24,000 nt of DNA, taken from the NCBI RefSeq assembly GCF_001899765.1, contig NZ_MKWM01000073.1, forward strand, positions 83,129 to 107,128. Reading direction: 5' to 3'. This DNA comes from Thiobacillus sp. 63-78. Its GTDB lineage: Bacteria; Pseudomonadota; Gammaproteobacteria; Burkholderiales; Thiobacillaceae. How positions within the stretch are numbered: the first letter of the stretch is position 1; each line of letters begins with the position of its first letter. The notes beneath the pieces are model-generated. The model saw only the letters and a program-made list of their open reading frames with translations. It ran no database searches and was not told the origin of the DNA. The position numbers and the translations under genes are program-made. Below are positions 8,495 to 18,992 of the stretch, one piece after another.

Positions 8495-10297
8495 TCAGAT
8501 ATCCGGATGATCCAGGCAGGCCCGCAAGGCTTCCGCCAGGAGGTGCATGTCTTCGATAGCGGTCACATAAGGCGGCATCACATAAACCGTCTGGCCGACG
8601 GGGCGGATGAACACGCCGTGGTCCAGCGCCGCCCGATGGAAACGGGCCGCAAAACCGGGGCGGGTCTGCGCGACGTCAAATGCCCAGATCATCCCCCTAT
8701 GCCGGAAATGGCGTACCCGCGGATGCGCCGCCACGTCCGCCAGCAAGTCCGTGAATGCCTGAGCCTTGACGCGGTTGGCGTCGATGACCCGGTCGCTCTC
8801 GAAAATGTCCAGCACCGCCAGCGCCGCCCGGCAGGCAAGCGGATTGCCGGTGTAGGAATGCGAATGCAGGAAACCGCGGGCGGTGGCGTCGCCGTAGAAC
8901 GCAGCATAGACGGCGTCGGTCGTCAGTACCGCCGACAGCGGCAGATAGCCGCCGGTGAGGCCCTTGGACAGGCAGATGAAGTCGGGGCGGATCGCGGCCT
9001 GCCTCGGTCCTTCTCCCCTCTCCCGCTGGGAGAGGGGCTGGGGGTGAGGGTACGCGCCAGCATGCAAGGCAGTCCAAACCTCCGAGAGCACTGCCTCGGT
9101 TTCCTGCAATACCTGATTGTTCCAGAAACGCACGACCCGCAAACCCTGCTGCCCAAGCCACGCATCGCGACGGGCGTCACGTGCGGGCTCAGCATGCTGC
9201 CCCCCATCCAGCTCGATGACCAGGCCAGCCTCATGGCAATAAAAATCCAGCGTGTAGGGCGGCATGGGATGCTGCCGACGGAATTTATGTCCGCCCAGAC
9301 GGCGATCCCGCAGCAGATACCACATCAGGGATTCTGCGTCGGTTTGTTCGTGGCGCAGCTTGCGTGCGAATTCGATCGCTTCGGGGGGGATATCTGGAAA
9401 ACGCTGGGCGTCTTGGCCAACAGCGGCGCTCTTACCGCCTGCGCCCTCACCCCCGGCCCCTCTCCCCGGGGGAGAGGGGAGCGATGCCTGCTCGAACGCG
9501 AACATCGTGCCGGTGCGGCCGAAACCCACGGCAATCTCGTCGGCGATCAGGTGCACCCGATATTGGTCGCACAGTTCGCGCGCGCGGGTCAGGTACGCCG
9601 GGTGGTACATCGCCATGCCCGCCGCGCCCTGCACCAGCGGCTCGACGATGAAGGCGGCGGTGGTGGCGGCGTGCTCGGCCAGATGTGCTTCCAGCGCCTC
9701 TGCACAGCGCAGTGCCCAGGCCTCGGCCGATTCGCCGGGCTCGGCCCGCCGCGCATCCGGCGTCGGCACCTGTACGCTGTGGCGCAGCAAGGGCGCGTAG
9801 GTGTCCTTGAACAGCGGGATATCGGTCACCGACAGCGCACCGACGGTTTCGCCGTGGTAGCCGTTTTGCAGGCTGACGAACGCGTTTTTCTCCGGCTGCC
9901 CTGCGTTGCGCCAGTAGTGCGCGCTCATTTTCAGTGCGATTTCGGTGGCCGAGGCGCCGTCCGAGCCATAAAACGCATGGCCCAGCCCGGTCAGTGCAGC
10001 CAGCCGCTCGGACAGCTCCACCACCGGCGCATGCGTCGCGCCGGCCAGCATCACATGTTCGATCCTGCCGAGTTGATCGACGATGGCGGCATTGATGCGC
10101 GGATTGCAATGGCCGAACAGGTTGACCCACCAGCTGGATATCGCGTCCAGATAACGCCGTCCGCCGGGATCGATCAGCCACGCCCCCTCGCCGCGCGCGA
10201 TCGCCAGCGGCGGCGTGGCTTCCAGCGTTTTCATCTGGGTGCAGGGGTGCCAGACGGCGGCACGGGTGCGGCGGATCAAATCATGGTCTGTTGTCAT
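8495..10297 (-). CDS. bioA: adenosylmethionine-8-amino-7-oxononanoate aminotransferase (BioA) carrying a 163-codon in-frame insertion
   Basis: 600-aa ORF. Residues 1-270 and 436-600 are colinear with BioA: WHPCTQMK, LDAISSWWVNLFGHCNPRI, ADEIAVGFGRTGTMFAFEQA and, after the insert, IRPDFICLSKGLTGGYLPLSAV with the PLP lysine, then SYTGNPLACRAALA. Residues about 271-435 are foreign (see element 9002..9485). Without the insert the protein would be 437 aa, a normal BioA length. Confidence 0.85.
   Translation of the reverse strand: MTTDHDLIRRTRAAVWHPCTQMKTLEATPPLAIARGEGAWLIDPGGRRYLDAISSWWVNLFGHCNPRINAAIVDQLGRIEHVMLAGATHAPVVELSERLAALTGLGHAFYGSDGASATEIALKMSAHYWRNAGQPEKNAFVSLQNGYHGETVGALSVTDIPLFKDTYAPLLRHSVQVPTPDARRAEPGESAEAWALRCAEALEAHLAEHAATTAAFIVEPLVQGAAGMAMYHPAYLTRARELCDQYRVHLIADEIAVGFGRTGTMFAFEQASLPSPPGRGAGGEGAGGKSAAVGQDAQRFPDIPPEAIEFARKLRHEQTDAESLMWYLLRDRRLGGHKFRRQHPMPPYTLDFYCHEAGLVIELDGGQHAEPARDARRDAWLGQQGLRVVRFWNNQVLQETEAVLSEVWTALHAGAYPHPQPLSQRERGEGPRQAAIRPDFICLSKGLTGGYLPLSAVLTTDAVYAAFYGDATARGFLHSHSYTGNPLACRAALAVLDIFESDRVIDANRVKAQAFTDLLADVAAHPRVRHFRHRGMIWAFDVAQTRPGFAARFHRAALDHGVFIRPVGQTVYVMPPYVTAIEDMHLLAEALRACLDHPDI
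9013..9050. repeat. hairpin module, left terminal inverted repeat of the bioA cassette
   Basis: CCCCTCTCCC (9015-9024), loop GCT, GGGAGAGGGG (9028-9037), followed by CTGGGGGTGAGGG (9038-9050). Confidence 0.8.
9074..9376 (-). other. DUF559 (Vsr-like, PD-(D/E)xK-fold) endonuclease domain embedded in the bioA reading frame
   Basis: The translation FARKLRHEQTDAESLMWYLLRDRRLGGHKFRRQHPMPPYTLDFYCHEAGLVIELDGGQHAEPARDARRDAWLGQQGLRVVRFWNNQVLQETEAVLSEVW matches the characteristic DUF559 pattern: AR.LR...T.AE..LW..LR......KFRRQ.P...Y..DF.C......IE.DG..H.....D..RD..L...G..V.RF.N..V. Confidence 0.75.
9444..9481. repeat. hairpin module, right terminal inverted repeat of the bioA cassette
   Basis: CCCTCACCCCC (9444-9454), GGC, CCCCTCTCCCC (9457-9467), then GGGGAGAGGGG (9469-9479). 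Its reverse complement aligns with 9013-9050 with only a few mismatches or indels. Confidence 0.8.
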
Positions 10298-10456
10298 GGG
10301 AGCTGATGGTCAAACTATCCGGCGCCTGCTCTCACCTTCGTCATCGGCAATGCGAACGGCTCATCCTGTCTGGTGACCCTGGCCAATACTGTACACCGGA
10401 CAGGCCCTGCCTTCGAGACGGTATGCGTGCCGGCCCACGCGTCCATCATGCGTGCG

Positions 10457-15595: not shown

Positions 15596-18019
15596 TTACT
15601 TCGTCAACGCCATGAACAACTGCGGCAGTTGCTCGGGCAAGCGCTCGACGCGATCGATGACGCTGAACTGGCGACCGAAGATGTCGCTGACGTATTCGTC
15701 AGCTTTTGGATCGAGGCTGATGCAGTAGGTGAAAATATTGTCCCGGTCGAGTTCCTTCACTGCTTGCCGGGCGTCTTCGACCAGCAGGCGTTCGTCGTGG
15801 GCATCGACGTCGGACGGCCTGCCGTCGGTGAGGATGAGCATCAGCTTCTTGTCGGCGCGGCGCGCGCCGAGCGTGTGCGCGGCGTGGCGCATCGCCGCGC
15901 CCATGCGGGTGGACCAGCCCGCCTGCATCGCGGCCAGGCGCGCCTTGACGTCGTCGTCGAACGCTTCGCCGTAGCCCTTGATGTGCAGGTAGCGCACGTC
16001 GTGACGGGTGTTGGAATGGAAGCCGGCGATGGCGAACGCATCGCCCAGCTTCTCGATCGCCCAGGCCAGGAGCGAAACCGCTTCCTGGCTGAGTTCGAGG
16101 ATGGTCTGCTCGCTGCCCGCCGCCTTGTCGTTGAGCGATTCCGACAGGTCCAGCAGCAGCATGACGGCGATGTCGCGGCCGTCGGTGCGATGGCTCATGT
16201 TGATGCGCGGGTCGGGGGTGGCGCCGCCCTTGAAGTCGATCAGCGCGCGCAGCGCGACGTCGAGATCGAGCTCGCTGCCTTCTTCCTGATAGCGGATGCG
16301 CACCTTGTCCTGCGGCTTCAAGAGGTCGAGCATCTTCTTCAGCCGCTTGGCGAGCGCGCCGTGTTTGGCGAGCAGACGGTCGATGTCGGCGGCATTGCCA
16401 TGCGGGTGCAGCGCTTCGTACACGCTGACCCAGTCCGGGCGGTAGGTCTGGCTCGCGTAGTCCCACTCCGGATAATGGCGCGGCGGCAGACCGTGAATCT
16501 CCTCGCCCGGCTCGATCTTGCGCGGCTCGTCGAAGGCGTCTTCCTCGTCGCCGGCCTCGATGAATTTCCACAACTGGCGGTTGTCGTCGCGGTAGTCGAC
16601 CACGGTGTCGGCGAAGTGGACGCGGGCGAACTGGTCGCTCTGGCGGCGGGTTTTGGCCACATAGTTCAAGGCCAGCGCGGCGATTTCTTTGGTGCTCGAT
16701 TCTCCGTGCGCCATGACGGCATGGAAACGCTGCACGGTGTCCAGCAGGTCGGCGTCAATGTAGCCGTGCGCCGGGTCGAGCAACGCGCGCGACAACATCG
16801 CCATGCGGTGACGCAGGCAGGAGGTGGTCTCCGGATCGCAGGCGGTCTCCAAAGGCTTCGGATGCAGCGCGAGGAACAGCTTGCGCAGACCGGGGTAGGC
16901 GCGGATCAGGAGCGTCTCGACGCGGCAGTCCTCGAAGAACTCCACCGCCATGCGCTGGAACGGGCTCCAGTTGTCGGCGACCTGCGCGTCGGACCAGCGA
17001 CGGTGGCCGACGATGTGGGCGAGCGCGGCGCGGTAGCGGTCGAGACCGGAGATGACGGTTTTCCCCTCGCCCGCTTGCGGGAGAGGGTGGTGCGAAGCAC
17101 CGGGAGAGGGCCGCGTGCGTCCCTCTCCCCCGGCCTCTCGTTCAATCGGTTTGGGCTCAGCTTTTTCCCCCTCTCCCTCGGGGAGAGGGTTGGGGTGAGG
17201 GAACGGGGAGGAAGGGAGGATCAGGTCGTCGTAGACGTCGGGCAGACGGATGCCGAGCTTGTCGTAATAGGGAATCGGCTTGCGGATTTCGTCGAACGCT
17301 GTCGAATACGGCACCAGGTGGTCGTGGTCCTGCCACAGGCCGCGCAGATACAGGTCCAGTTTGCGCTCGACGTCGATCAATAACGTCCCATGGCGCTCGC
17401 GTTGCAGCACGGCGCGGCTGTCGGCCGATTGCAGGCTGAAGTAATCCTTCTGCCGCTCGGGGTGGCCACGGTAGTTGCGGATGCCGTATTCGACCCAGTT
17501 CCCGAGGCCGGCGATGGAAAGCTGCGCGAGCAGGCCGGGCGCCTGGGCGAAGAATTCCGGCAGGCCGGGGCTGGGAAAAGTGGTGTGGTGGCCGTGGATG
17601 GAGCCGGTGGTGCGCGCCTTCAGGTCTAGCGCAATGTCGAGATAGTGCTGCAGTTGATCTTCGGATTGCAGCCGCCTGGCCACCGGCGCCAGCGTCTGCA
17701 GGAAAGGCGTGATCGCGCGGCCGTTGGGTGATTTCTGCAGGCGCTGGATCAGCGCCATCACCGCCGGCAGCGCGGACTCGCCGACCGCCTGCGCGGCCGA
17801 CGGCCACTCCTCCAGGAAGGCCAGCAGCGGTTCGACGCCGCGCCCCAGCTTGCCGATGACGCGGCCGGCTTCGAGGTAGGCGTCGAGCCCCGCGCGCGTG
17901 AGCACCGCCAGCGCTTCCGCCATGACATCGTCGAACACCGCCTCCACCTGCGGGAAACGGGTGTCGAGCTGGCGCCAGTAGGCGGCCATGAGGGGGTGCT
18001 GGTAGACGGTTTCGGTCAT
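15596..18019 (-). CDS. cbbO: CbbO, von Willebrand factor A-domain adaptor of the CbbQO RuBisCO activase, carrying an in-frame repeat-derived insert
   Basis: ORF 15596..18208. Start set to ATG 18019 (MTETVYQHPLMAAYWRQLD), because the upstream 63 codons are encoded by a repeat element. C-terminal VWA domain with MIDAS DLSES (VMLLLDLSESLN) and LILTDGRPSDVD. Located immediately downstream of cbbQ. No SD before ATG 18019. Confidence 0.88.
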   Translation of the reverse strand: MTETVYQHPLMAAYWRQLDTRFPQVEAVFDDVMAEALAVLTRAGLDAYLEAGRVIGKLGRGVEPLLAFLEEWPSAAQAVGESALPAVMALIQRLQKSPNGRAITPFLQTLAPVARRLQSEDQLQHYLDIALDLKARTTGSIHGHHTTFPSPGLPEFFAQAPGLLAQLSIAGLGNWVEYGIRNYRGHPERQKDYFSLQSADSRAVLQRERHGTLLIDVERKLDLYLRGLWQDHDHLVPYSTAFDEIRKPIPYYDKLGIRLPDVYDDLILPSSPFPHPNPLPEGEGEKAEPKPIEREAGGEGRTRPSPGASHHPLPQAGEGKTVISGLDRYRAALAHIVGHRRWSDAQVADNWSPFQRMAVEFFEDCRVETLLIRAYPGLRKLFLALHPKPLETACDPETTSCLRHRMAMLSRALLDPAHGYIDADLLDTVQRFHAVMAHGESSTKEIAALALNYVAKTRRQSDQFARVHFADTVVDYRDDNRQLWKFIEAGDEEDAFDEPRKIEPGEEIHGLPPRHYPEWDYASQTYRPDWVSVYEALHPHGNAADIDRLLAKHGALAKRLKKMLDLLKPQDKVRIRYQEEGSELDLDVALRALIDFKGGATPDPRINMSHRTDGRDIAVMLLLDLSESLNDKAAGSEQTILELSQEAVSLLAWAIEKLGDAFAIAGFHSNTRHDVRYLHIKGYGEAFDDDVKARLAAMQAGWSTRMGAAMRHAAHTLGARRADKKLMLILTDGRPSDVDAHDERLLVEDARQAVKELDRDNIFTYCISLDPKADEYVSDIFGRQFSVIDRVERLPEQLPQLFMALTK
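17063..17201. repeat. cluster of three hairpin modules (same family as the bioA cassette TIRs) inside cbbO
   Basis: H1 17063-17087: CCCCTCGCCCGCTTGCGGGAGAGGG. H2: GGGAGAGGG 17102-17110 pairing with CCCTCTCCC 17121-17129. H3: CCCTCTCCC 17169-17177, loop TCG, GGGAGAGGG 17181-17189, followed by TTGGGGTGAGGG (17190-17201). Translated in the cbbO frame as PHPNPLPEGEGEKAEPKPIEREAGGEGRTRPSPGASHHPLPQAGEGK. Confidence 0.7.
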
Positions 18020-18040
18020 GGGTAGGGTGGTGAAAACCGG

Positions 18041-18182
18041 TTCACCACAGAGACACAGAGGCACAGAGGCACAGAGGCACAGAGAAAACCATCCAGCACT
18101 CGACATCCAATCGAGCGCCAGATTTATTTCCAGCACACCTGGTTCTGCTCTTTTCTCTGTGTCTCTGTGCCTCTGTGGTGAA
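18041..18182. repeat. inverted-repeat element built from CACAGAG(G/A) octamers, at the cbbQ-cbbO junction
   Basis: Left arm: TTCAC followed by 5 tandem octamers (18046-18085) and AAA. Right arm 18150-18182 is the reverse complement with 3 octamers and ends in GGTGAA. The outer 12 nt are perfectly complementary (TTCACCACAGAG / CTCTGTGGTGAA). The central non-repeated part is about 60 nt. Confidence 0.7.
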
Positions 18183-18188
18183 AGCATT

Positions 18189-18992
18189 TCAAGCAAACGT
18201 CGCATCAACCGCGTGATCCAGCGTCTCGCGAATATCGGCGTCGTCGGTGATCGGGCGCACCAGCGCCATGCGGCAGGCGTCGGCAGGCGCCACGCCGTCC
18301 TTGATCAGCGTCGCCGCGTACACCAGCAGGCGGGTCGAGATGCCTTCGTCGAGTCCGTGGCCTTTCAGATTGCGCGCGACGCCGCCGATCTTCACCAGTT
18401 GTGCCGCCACCGTTTCGTCCATGCCGGTTTCCTGCGCCACAATCTGCGCTTCCAGCGCGGCGTCGGGATAGTCGAAATCGAACGCGGTGAAGCGCTGCTT
18501 GGTCGACTGCTTGAGATCCTTCATCAGCGTCTGGTAGCCGGGGTTGTAGGAAATCACCAACTGGAAGTCGGGGTGCGCGCGGATCAGCTCGCCCTTCTTG
18601 TCGAGCGGCAGGGTGCGGCGGTGGTCGGTCAGCGGGTGGATCACCACGGTGGTGTCCTGGCGTGCCTCCACAATTTCATCGAGATAGCAGATGGCGCCGA
18701 TGCGCGCGGCGGTGGTCAACGGGCCGTCGAGCCAGCGGGTGCCGTTGGCTTCCAGCAGATAGCGGCCGACCAGATCGGACGCGGTCATGTCCTCGTTGCA
18801 GGCCACGGTGATCAGCGGCTTGCCGAGCTTCCACGCCATGTATTCGACGAAGCGCGATTTCCCGCACCCTGTTGGCCCTTTCACCATCACCGGCAGGCGG
18901 TTGCGGTAGGCCGCTTCGTACAGCGCGACTTCGTTCTTCTGCTGCTGGTAGAAGGGTTCCTGCTGAACCTTGTACTGGTCCTTGTCGATCAT
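18189..18992 (-). CDS. cbbQ: CbbQ, MoxR-type AAA+ ATPase of the CbbQO RuBisCO activase
   Basis: ORF 18189..19007 (TTG). ATG 18992 ([29 protein letters not shown]) is preferred because GAGG lies 7 nt upstream. Walker [21 protein letters not shown], Walker [12 protein letters not shown], typical CbbQ/NirQ sequence. Confidence 0.93.

Follow-up and report, generated by a model that had tools for sequence, protein, structure and literature searches.

The DNA analysed here, referred to as the window, is a stretch of 24,000 nucleotides from Thiobacillus sp. 63-78 (contig NZ_MKWM01000073.1, positions 83,129 to 107,128). Its minus strand carries bioA, the gene for adenosylmethionine-8-amino-7-oxononanoate aminotransferase, and inside bioA lies a 489-bp cassette unit with a DUF559 nuclease domain. 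The open reading frame (ORF), the parts of the insert and the adjacent active-site residue are as follows, with the evidence for each in brackets.

8495..10297, minus strand: bioA ORF, 600 aa including the insert (ORF list, Pfam, homologues).
8996..9484, minus strand: in-frame insert of 163 codons (residues 272-434), the full cassette plus junction codons (alignment against empty alleles, DNA junctions).
9444..9481, minus strand: upstream terminal repeat (5' in the gene sense), a boxC/TM unit (hairpin 9457-9479 and GGGGTGAGGG tail 9444-9453).
9065..9373, minus strand: DUF559 / Vsr-like PD-(D/E)xK nuclease domain, residues 309-411 (Pfam PF04480, PDB 3HRL, invariant residues, ratio of nonsynonymous to synonymous substitution [dN/dS], AlphaFold2 model).
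9013..9050, minus strand: downstream (3') terminal repeat, a boxC/TM unit in inverse orientation (in the gene sense, tail' CCCTCACCCC and then the hairpin).
8997..9002, no strand: direct repeat GCCTGC, downstream copy in the gene sense, a possible target-site duplication (DNA junctions).
9486..9491, no strand: direct repeat GCCTGC, upstream copy in the gene sense (DNA junctions).
8963..8965, minus strand: codon of the pyridoxal phosphate (PLP)-binding lysine (K445, LSKG motif), 11 residues past the insert (S444-K445-G446 invariant in the alignment).

BioA homology ends at ...GTMFAFEQA (residue 271) and restarts at AIRPDFICLSK(445)G. The protein around the insert reads ...GFGRTGTMFAFEQA (to residue 271), then SLPSPPGRG...GEGPRQA (to residue 434), then AIRPDFICLSK(445)GLTGG, and the junction-spanning peptides of the fusion are ...FAFEQASLPSPPGR and QAAIRPDFICLSK. 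The 600-aa ORF has the conserved domain Aminotran_3 (E-value: 9e-92) in two stretches around DUF559. K445 lies 11 residues past the junction, and we take it to be the PLP lysine from what is established for class III aminotransferases; a preliminary description of this DNA, made from the letters alone, had placed a 163-codon in-frame insert beside this lysine, and this is borne out. The same description had stated that the domain has neither a start nor a stop of its own. No in-frame ATG, GTG or TTG is indeed present between the upstream repeat and the DUF559 core of the window cassette, and no stop codon from hairpin to hairpin; the DUF559 frame, open through both repeats, therefore depends on the host gene for transcription and translation and can be made only within the host protein. 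The gene is also isolated, as had been noted, with no other bio gene in the 24-kb window or in the syntenic 21.8-kb locus L008. On the plus strand, a 599-aa ORF (8507-10306) runs antisense to all of bioA and is most likely a high-GC artefact.

Removal of the insert together with one copy of the direct repeat restores GAG CAG GCC GCG ATC (EQAAI), the sequence of the empty allele. Such removal regenerates the empty-site sequence in the window and in alleles L001 and L009, and in these last two the direct repeat is kept as CAGGC / AGCAGGCA. The terminal inverted repeats are imperfect, as first described: the arms are 38 nt each and 92% complementary, each with a perfect hairpin stem of 10-11 bp followed by the GGGGTGAGGG tail. 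The upstream repeat is translated as LPSPPGRGAGGEG and the downstream repeat as YPHPQPLSQRERGEG. The window has three occurrences of the hairpin pattern, and 100 dinucleotide-preserving shuffles of it gave none. Folding of the hairpin at 9015-9037, with a tool that models Watson-Crick hairpins only, gives -11.5 kcal/mol and leaves the tail unpaired.

The interior of the cassette is most similar to DUF559 (PF04480; E-value: 3.1e-36, 124 bits against a gathering cut-off of 20.6, profile positions 5-108 of 109), in agreement with the preliminary description. Eight residues are invariant in a 91-sequence DUF559 alignment (R44, E51, Q71, E91, D93, G94, D103 and W121), and the window copy has all of them, including the family-invariant motifs (D in ..LDF.., E.DG..H, and R/W in RFWN). 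The domain is 50% identical to PDB 3HRL, a solved Neisseria DUF559 protein (E-value: 6.7e-24). In an AlphaFold2 model of the 600-aa fusion, run with a 98-sequence alignment, residues ~301-415 are confidently predicted (predicted local distance difference test [pLDDT] 85-96), and the linkers at 270-300 and 417-458 are unstructured (pLDDT <40). The fusion as a whole is poorly modelled (mean pLDDT 65, predicted template-modelling score [pTM] 0.44), and the BioA part badly so, probably because the BioA rows of the alignment are all close relatives.

Repeats of the boxC/PIT/TM type have been known since the 1990s and occur in hundreds of bacterial genomes; we know of no origin for them. Holder et al. 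(2015; PMC4666352) described the "TM_ECO" motif, which equals boxC and PIT, as an intrastrand triplex motif of the form CCCTC(T/G)CCC-loop-GGGAGAGGG-NN-GGGGTGAGGG. The 23 copies in E. coli K-12 are all intergenic, the motif is found in >260 genomes, it forms a stable triplex in vitro and it is linked to genomic instability; no transposase, integrase or other mobility function has ever been found near it, and an endonuclease is not mentioned (PMC4666352). The terminal repeats in the window match the consensus in Table 1 of that paper (CCCTCTCCC, loop, GGGAGAGGG, 2-3 nt, GGGGTGAGGG) and agree in length and block order with the 23 listed E. coli copies. They have all three blocks, namely a pyrimidine block, a loop, a complementary purine block, a second loop and a G-rich block (GGGTGAGGG). 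The boxC units of the window lie at 9014-9050 (+), 9444-9483 (-) and 17167-17201 (+). By sequence, then, each terminal repeat can be classified as boxC/PIT/TM, a known orphan repeat. The repeats first described are real, but they are not private to the element. Whereas boxC as published is strictly intergenic and has no mobility gene, here two inverted copies bracket a nuclease gene, and each of the window's four hairpins is part of a translated ORF (bioA or cbbO).

The best relatives of BioA without its insert are Thiobacillus BioA proteins of 434-448 aa (84-88% identity). A set of 112 Thiobacillus BioA sequences was sorted by what lies between GFGRTG and PDFICLSKG, with the following classes and counts.

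Empty site, TMFACEQAA(I/V)R: 85.
Site with 11 additional aa: 13.
Site with 12 to 16 additional aa: 6.
Site with 43 to 49 additional aa, host segment duplicated: 4.
Site with a DUF559 cassette: 6.

The empty site expected from the preliminary description reads MFACEQAA(I/V)RPDF in 85 of the 112 (DNA: GAGCAGGCGGCCATCCGC). The six DUF559-bearing alleles sit on scattered branches and have flanking repeats in every case, which refutes an ancient domain fusion in BioA. At the DNA level, the class with 11 additional residues is a solo boxC-like hairpin (CCCGCTCCCGCTTGCGGGATCGGG), and one allele with 13 is built of reiterated CCCTCACCCC tails. The alleles with a cassette are polyphyletic in a tree built from the host parts. 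L012 is 96% identical to alleles that have only remnants, and the nearest neighbour of the window bioA, besides its near-twin P0121, is an allele with 11 additional residues (91% identity). Judged from these alignments, the cassette is an insertion relative to orthologues, and the bioA site is polymorphic for it and a hot spot for insertion.

Several other observations concern this site. A C-to-F change in MFA[C/F]EQA was considered as a marker of filled alleles and rejected: C is present in the filled L007, L009 and L012, and F in several alleles that are empty. A different insert of ~129 nt is present at the bioA site of L002 (3001-4434; P0183) and of P0153, P0178 and P0179. A duplicated 39-bp host sequence (GRTGTMFAFEQAA ... 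RTDTLFACEQAA) flanks it, and the insert may be a repair footprint. The BioA of L008 (10001-11803; P0121) equals the window protein through the N-terminal part and the cassette and departs from it along most of the C-terminal ~90 residues (host parts 93% identical), which points to a recombination breakpoint within bioA, 3' of the insert.

Values of dN/dS were obtained by the Nei-Gojobori method for four independent in-frame alleles (window, L001, L009 and L012), among which synonymous divergence (dS) ranges from 0.46 to 2.6. The ratio is 0.09-0.17 in the DUF559 core, 0.07-0.11 in the BioA part upstream of the insert, 0.17-0.24 in the BioA part downstream of it and 0.3-0.87 in the repeat-encoded linkers. 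On this measure the DUF559 core and BioA are both under purifying selection, and the gene is a translated fusion and not a pseudogene. Selection downstream of the insert rules out a pseudogene, and selection on a DUF559 frame that has no start means that it is read from the bioA start. The suggestion in the preliminary description that bioA might be a cryptic pseudogene is contradicted by these downstream values and by the intact frames of five of the six insert-bearing alleles examined (L010 and L011 are cut by contig ends). In L007, bioA is split by a frameshifting deletion in the left repeat, so cassette insertions can also kill the host gene. That bioA is a disrupted pseudogene, or its arrangement an assembly artefact at the repeat, with a long ORF owed to high G+C content, is a highly improbable and largely refuted explanation. 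High-GC DNA does yield long spurious ORFs, such as the 599-aa antisense one, and besides the L007 frameshift the contigs L010 and L011 break at the repeat; but the in-frame bioA arrangement is present in independent assemblies from ENA, Logan, JGI and NCBI, dN/dS is low on both sides of the insert, and the PLP-site motifs are all invariant across the aligned BioA alleles.

The cassette and its host gene differ in composition and, in part, in history. G+C content at third codon positions is 0.60-0.73 in the DUF559 core and 0.79-0.85 in bioA of the same alleles. The synonymous divergence of the L012 cassette from the other three is significantly above that of its bioA (the bootstrap 95% interval excludes 0; 109 codons), whereas the trend in the remaining three allele pairs is the opposite. 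As far as substitution counts go, the discordance fits a cassette that has moved between bioA alleles.

Relatives of the insert were sought by a scan of one genome per species, which gave 77 loci; host genes were recognised from stop-to-stop ORFs and Pfam. The in-gene cassettes are as follows.

Methionyl-tRNA synthetase MetG (L014, L020, L021, L028): in frame, at every locus in the linker immediately preceding the C-terminal tRNA-binding domain.
Methionine synthase MetH (L016, Anaerolineales): in frame, between the pterin-binding and B12-cap domains.
MmeI-type restriction-modification enzymes (L013, L017, L019, L022, L024): in frame.
Type I HsdS subunit (L015): in frame.
RibD of a candidate-phyla-radiation (CPR) bacterium (L074): in frame.
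RuvC (L067): at the C-terminus.

Matches in protein databases add Ham1 and HsdM to the hosts. The architecture is constant across phyla, with a left hairpin and tail and a right tail' and hairpin, and the order repeat-nuclease-repeat is found in Pseudomonadota, Chloroflexota, Kapabacteria, CPR bacteria and viral contigs. DUF559 is the only domain that the window cassette encodes, and the flanking genes of the examined loci have no transposase domain. All 13 in-gene cassettes examined are free of stops from hairpin to hairpin, and nine of them have no internal start. In the free-standing relatives L039, L066 and L080, the TGA of GGGGTGAGGG closes the frame in the left tail, and the ORF has its own start and terminates ahead of the right repeat. 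Two of the three frames are open in the left repeat and all three in the right one, and different hosts read the right repeat in each of the three. The cassette ends are intrinsically compatible with ORFs. A selfish cassette whose ends are built to be translated, as the preliminary description proposed, is supported by these stop-free units and by a right end that has no stop in any frame. In a tree, the in-gene cassettes form one clade apart from the free-standing DUF559 genes.

Some of these loci carry additional copies. In the MmeI-type genes of L017 (1681-1706) and L022 (3052-3077), a second, solo boxC hairpin lies in frame ~70 codons downstream of the cassette (...CVIIGFYLPSPAG...). In P0001 (263 aa, metagenome), one ORF encodes two DUF559 domains in tandem, with boxC-coded peptides between them, and in L013 (2501-2567) the left boxC is doubled (LPSPTGRGAGGEG twice). 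P0001 and L013 together indicate that cassettes and their ends can be reiterated in frame.

The range of hosts bears on a further explanation, in which the insert is a former mobile element kept for the benefit of the host (regulation of BioA, moonlighting DNA binding or repair, or defence). Low dN/dS over dS values of 0.46-2.6 would be in keeping with it, as would the long occupation of the bioA site in several lineages. We consider such exaptation improbable: most Thiobacillus have no insert or only decayed remnants, L007 is frameshifted in the left repeat, and the same type of cassette occurs in unrelated enzymes (MetG, MetH, RibD and BioA) in which a role for a nuclease is not obvious.

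The window itself contains a second in-frame insert derived from boxC.

17057..17224, minus strand: in-frame insert of 56 codons inside cbbO, with three hairpins and no nuclease.

The cbbO ORF spans 15596..18208, with the true start near 18034. Hairpins of the insert are located at 17064-17087 and 17167-17201, and it is translated as LILPSSPFPHPNPLPEGEGEK...PLPQAGEGKT, also containing ...PFPHPNPLPEGEGEK.... Eight CbbO homologues from other lineages (P0241-P0248) do not have the segment; the near-identical locus L008 has it. The cbbO and bioA cases together show that boxC units enter ORFs in frame with and without a nuclease in Thiobacillus sp. 63-78. The intergenic region between cbbO and cbbQ holds a palindromic element of another kind (18041-18182, ~140 bp). 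Two 28-nt arms of CACAGAGG octamer repeats, 93% complementary, lie 86 nt apart in it, and it is read in spurious ORFs as ...SPQRHRDTEKRAE... and ...LCLCASVPLCLCGE....

Further copies of repeat and cassette, which the preliminary description had proposed as a check, are found not only in cbbO and in the other genes and genomes above but also as multi-copy families in Gallionella. Two Gallionella metagenome-assembled genomes (MAGs) have 4-5 copies each of a free-standing 440-490-bp unit with sharp ends (83-94% nucleotide identity). Their terminal inverted repeats of ~40 bp are 97-100% identical between copies and are a boxC variant (CTCCCTCCCCTTCAAGGGGAGGG-TT-GGGGTGGGGATGGGG); an ATG directly follows the left tail, and the ORF runs on across the right repeat without a stop. 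In some Gallionella copies the end falls midway along the hairpin loop (right ends of L027, L047 and L049, left end of L033; ...CCCTCCCCTTGAAGG/CATAGGTATCTACACAA, the slash marking the end), and identical foreign sequence abuts either end of such copies in either orientation. This hints at breakage and rejoining at the hairpin loop.

The association of DUF559 with boxC extends beyond these families. Across 75 loci, hairpin density is 1.42/kb within 200 bp of DUF559 and 0.11/kb beyond 400 bp, a 12-fold difference, and at least one hairpin lies near DUF559 in 39 of the 75. Flanking by boxC recurs in an independent sample of viral contigs, where the hairpins are often doubled and the relatives are free-standing and at most 52% identical. 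A N. gonorrhoeae homologue of 3HRL is flanked by degenerate boxC copies. The E. coli DUF559 gene ycjD ends ...SPSP(stop) in a degenerate hairpin, with a full boxC (TM no. 9 of Holder et al.) ~170 bp downstream. In the K-12 sequence (L086, 1705-1925), ycjD is followed by a partial duplicate of its own 3' end (GGAGACGGTGCTGGAGAATATTC...) and then by the complete boxC; the region resembles what a rearranged or tandem element might leave behind. To judge from these copies and their surroundings, the cassette family is multi-copy and mobile, resides in many host genes and has a DUF559 gene physically associated with boxC.

The cassette shares features with several known systems. Inteins are likewise inserted in frame at the active-site motif of a conserved enzyme, co-translated, nuclease-bearing and patchy among orthologues at one site. 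They begin with Cys, Ser or Thr at position 1 and end with His-Asn followed by Cys, Ser or Thr at the C-junction. The bioA unit has no Hint domain (Pfam finds only Aminotran_3, DUF559 and, below threshold, the related nuclease family MTES_1575), and its junctions EQA/SLPS and PRQA/AIRP (Ala/Ser and Ala/Ala) cannot support splicing, so the insert would stay in the mature protein. An Rfam scan of the whole window gave no matches, and hence no recognisable intron or ribozyme that could remove the insert. Rickettsia palindromic elements resemble the cbbO insert and the 11-13-aa BioA remnants in being palindromes that lie in frame; however, they encode no enzyme, are confined to Rickettsia and are unrelated in sequence, whereas the bioA unit has a conserved and selected nuclease domain, a Thiobacillus host, boxC as its repeat and no Rfam family in its window. 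As a precedent, named in the preliminary description, they hold for the in-frame behaviour of the palindromes and not for a nuclease-bearing cassette.

Vsr-like (EDxHD) homing endonucleases are found in 'fractured genes' (Dassa et al. 2009, PMC2677866), and Vsr, DUF559 and the intron homing endonuclease I-Bth0305I (PDB 3R3P) have been grouped in one clade (PMC3424549). These systems have the nuclease superfamily and residence in conserved genes in common with the cassette. Their nucleases, however, are separate ORFs with their own start and stop, lying between split-intein halves or in group I introns of a fractured or spliced host, whereas the bioA host ORF is continuous and has no intein or intron. 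REP/RAYT systems and REPINs also have a nuclease gene between inverted cognate hairpins and a repeat scattered as singlets and doublets. In contrast to the DUF559 cassette, which has a different fold and is multi-copy and intragenic, RAYTs are HUH Y1 transposases, usually single-copy and domesticated, and REPs are extragenic. Like transposons with terminal inverted repeats and miniature inverted-repeat transposable elements, the unit has inverted repeats and, in the Gallionella MAGs, multiple copies with sharp ends; unlike a classical transposon, it neither encodes nor is flanked by a transposase of a known family. Patchy, polyphyletic occupancy and the dS discordance of L012 are traits of a homing gene, yet the bioA cassettes are monophyletic and show no recent gain; the diversity of host genes and the lack of a clearly recent gain weigh against simple homing. 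A search of plasmid proteins found only free-standing DUF559 genes of <60% identity and gave no indication that the bioA-cassette lineage is carried on plasmids.

The 489-bp unit is probably, on the sequence comparisons above, a copy of a mobile selfish cassette, a DUF559 nuclease gene between two inverted boxC repeats that is translated inside a host protein. The proposed course of events is this. In the in-gene sub-family, the nuclease ORF would have lost its own start and stop and would stay open through both repeats, which are G/C-rich and are predicted to encode disordered linkers rich in Pro, Gly and Ser. The cassette would persist where the host tolerates a tethered domain, such as the loop by the PLP lysine in BioA or the interdomain linkers of MetG and MetH, and BioA would remain functional despite the insert. 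DUF559 would be the mobility nuclease of the element itself, acting on the structured ends (hairpin, cruciform or triplex) or on the empty allele. The resulting nick or break may be repaired by copying of the cassette, in a homing-like manner among orthologous bioA alleles, and decay of the cassette by deletion would leave solo hairpins of 11-13 codons.

A number of points weigh against this model. To our knowledge, no biochemical function has been demonstrated for DUF559, and we know of no PD-(D/E)xK nuclease that carries out strand transfer alone. Two near-invariant basic residues are changed in allele L001. Purifying selection on the insert could in part reflect the need to keep an internal domain folded, and not catalytic activity. 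With a pTM of 0.44, the geometry of the insertion site cannot be read from the AlphaFold2 model, and surface exposure is deduced only from natural variation in length. The bioA cassettes are monophyletic, and their closest relatives outside bioA are at most ~68% identical; one old insertion that was then inherited vertically, with losses and occasional recombination, may therefore suffice to explain much of the distribution without active homing. A very recent gain or loss of the full cassette was not found among the alleles, the nearest remnant or empty ones being 91-96% identical. Finally, neither a general target-site duplication nor a common target motif was found among 16 cassettes, in which the longest flank match averaged 4.6 nt against 4.4 nt for random pairs. 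Since this is no better than random, the 6-bp repeat cannot be generalised, and classical cut-and-paste transposition is unsupported. The reading of GCCTGC as a target-site duplication, made in the preliminary description, holds for the bioA lineage, to which a direct repeat of 6-8 bp is confined and in which its removal restores EQAAI; it fails as a property of the family.

The lack of a general target-site duplication also fits a passenger model, in which boxC would be moved or recombined by the host or by some other trans-acting factor, be it slippage during replication, recombination at structured DNA or a transposase encoded elsewhere, and DUF559 would be trapped cargo with a role in repair or defence unrelated to mobility. 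The occurrence of boxC without DUF559 in cbbO, at the bioA site of other strains and at 23 sites in E. coli, which has one DUF559 gene, is in line with such a passenger, as are the many free-standing DUF559 homologues at which the regular expression used recognised no boxC. We nevertheless regard it as an unlikely, if the most serious, competitor. The repeat-nuclease-repeat unit with conserved orientation recurs across phyla and viral contigs, the whole unit and not the repeats alone is multi-copy with sharp ends in Gallionella, and hairpins are 12-fold enriched beside DUF559; nor has any other candidate mobility gene been linked to boxC (PMC4666352).

The mobile-cassette reading can be extended, more tentatively, to the family as a whole. 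It is conceivable, though we would not yet favour it, that boxC/PIT/TM repeats are the ends and non-autonomous derivatives of a widespread DUF559 mobile element and that DUF559 proteins, including YcjD, are structure-specific mobilising nucleases. One clade would then have become a 'domain parasite', start-less, stop-less and unspliced, inside genes such as bioA, metG, metH and ribD. Its repeats would serve as translated flexible linkers, and the host gene would supply the signals for transcription and translation.

No description of boxC-bounded or in-frame DUF559 cassettes was found in the open-access literature. What is new, at the level of sequence, is that boxC forms the ends of DUF559 cassettes and that such cassettes lie in frame in MetG, MetH, RibD, MmeI-type and type I restriction-modification genes of several phyla. 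This points to an undescribed way for a selfish element to persist, in frame inside host genes. An internal "endonuclease domain" in an oversized BioA, MetG, MetH or restriction-modification protein marks a mosaic, which gene callers sometimes split (P0002, P0006 and P0010), and nature has already validated the occupied sites as permissive for insertion, linkers included, which could be of use in protein engineering. If the proposed model is true, it would provide a candidate function and a natural substrate for DUF559, a very common domain of unknown function that includes YcjD of E. coli. It would likewise supply a candidate mobility gene for the orphan boxC/triplex repeats, for which the main published study sought one and found none. 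Permanent in-frame residence would then stand beside introns and inteins as a third route for selfish nucleases.

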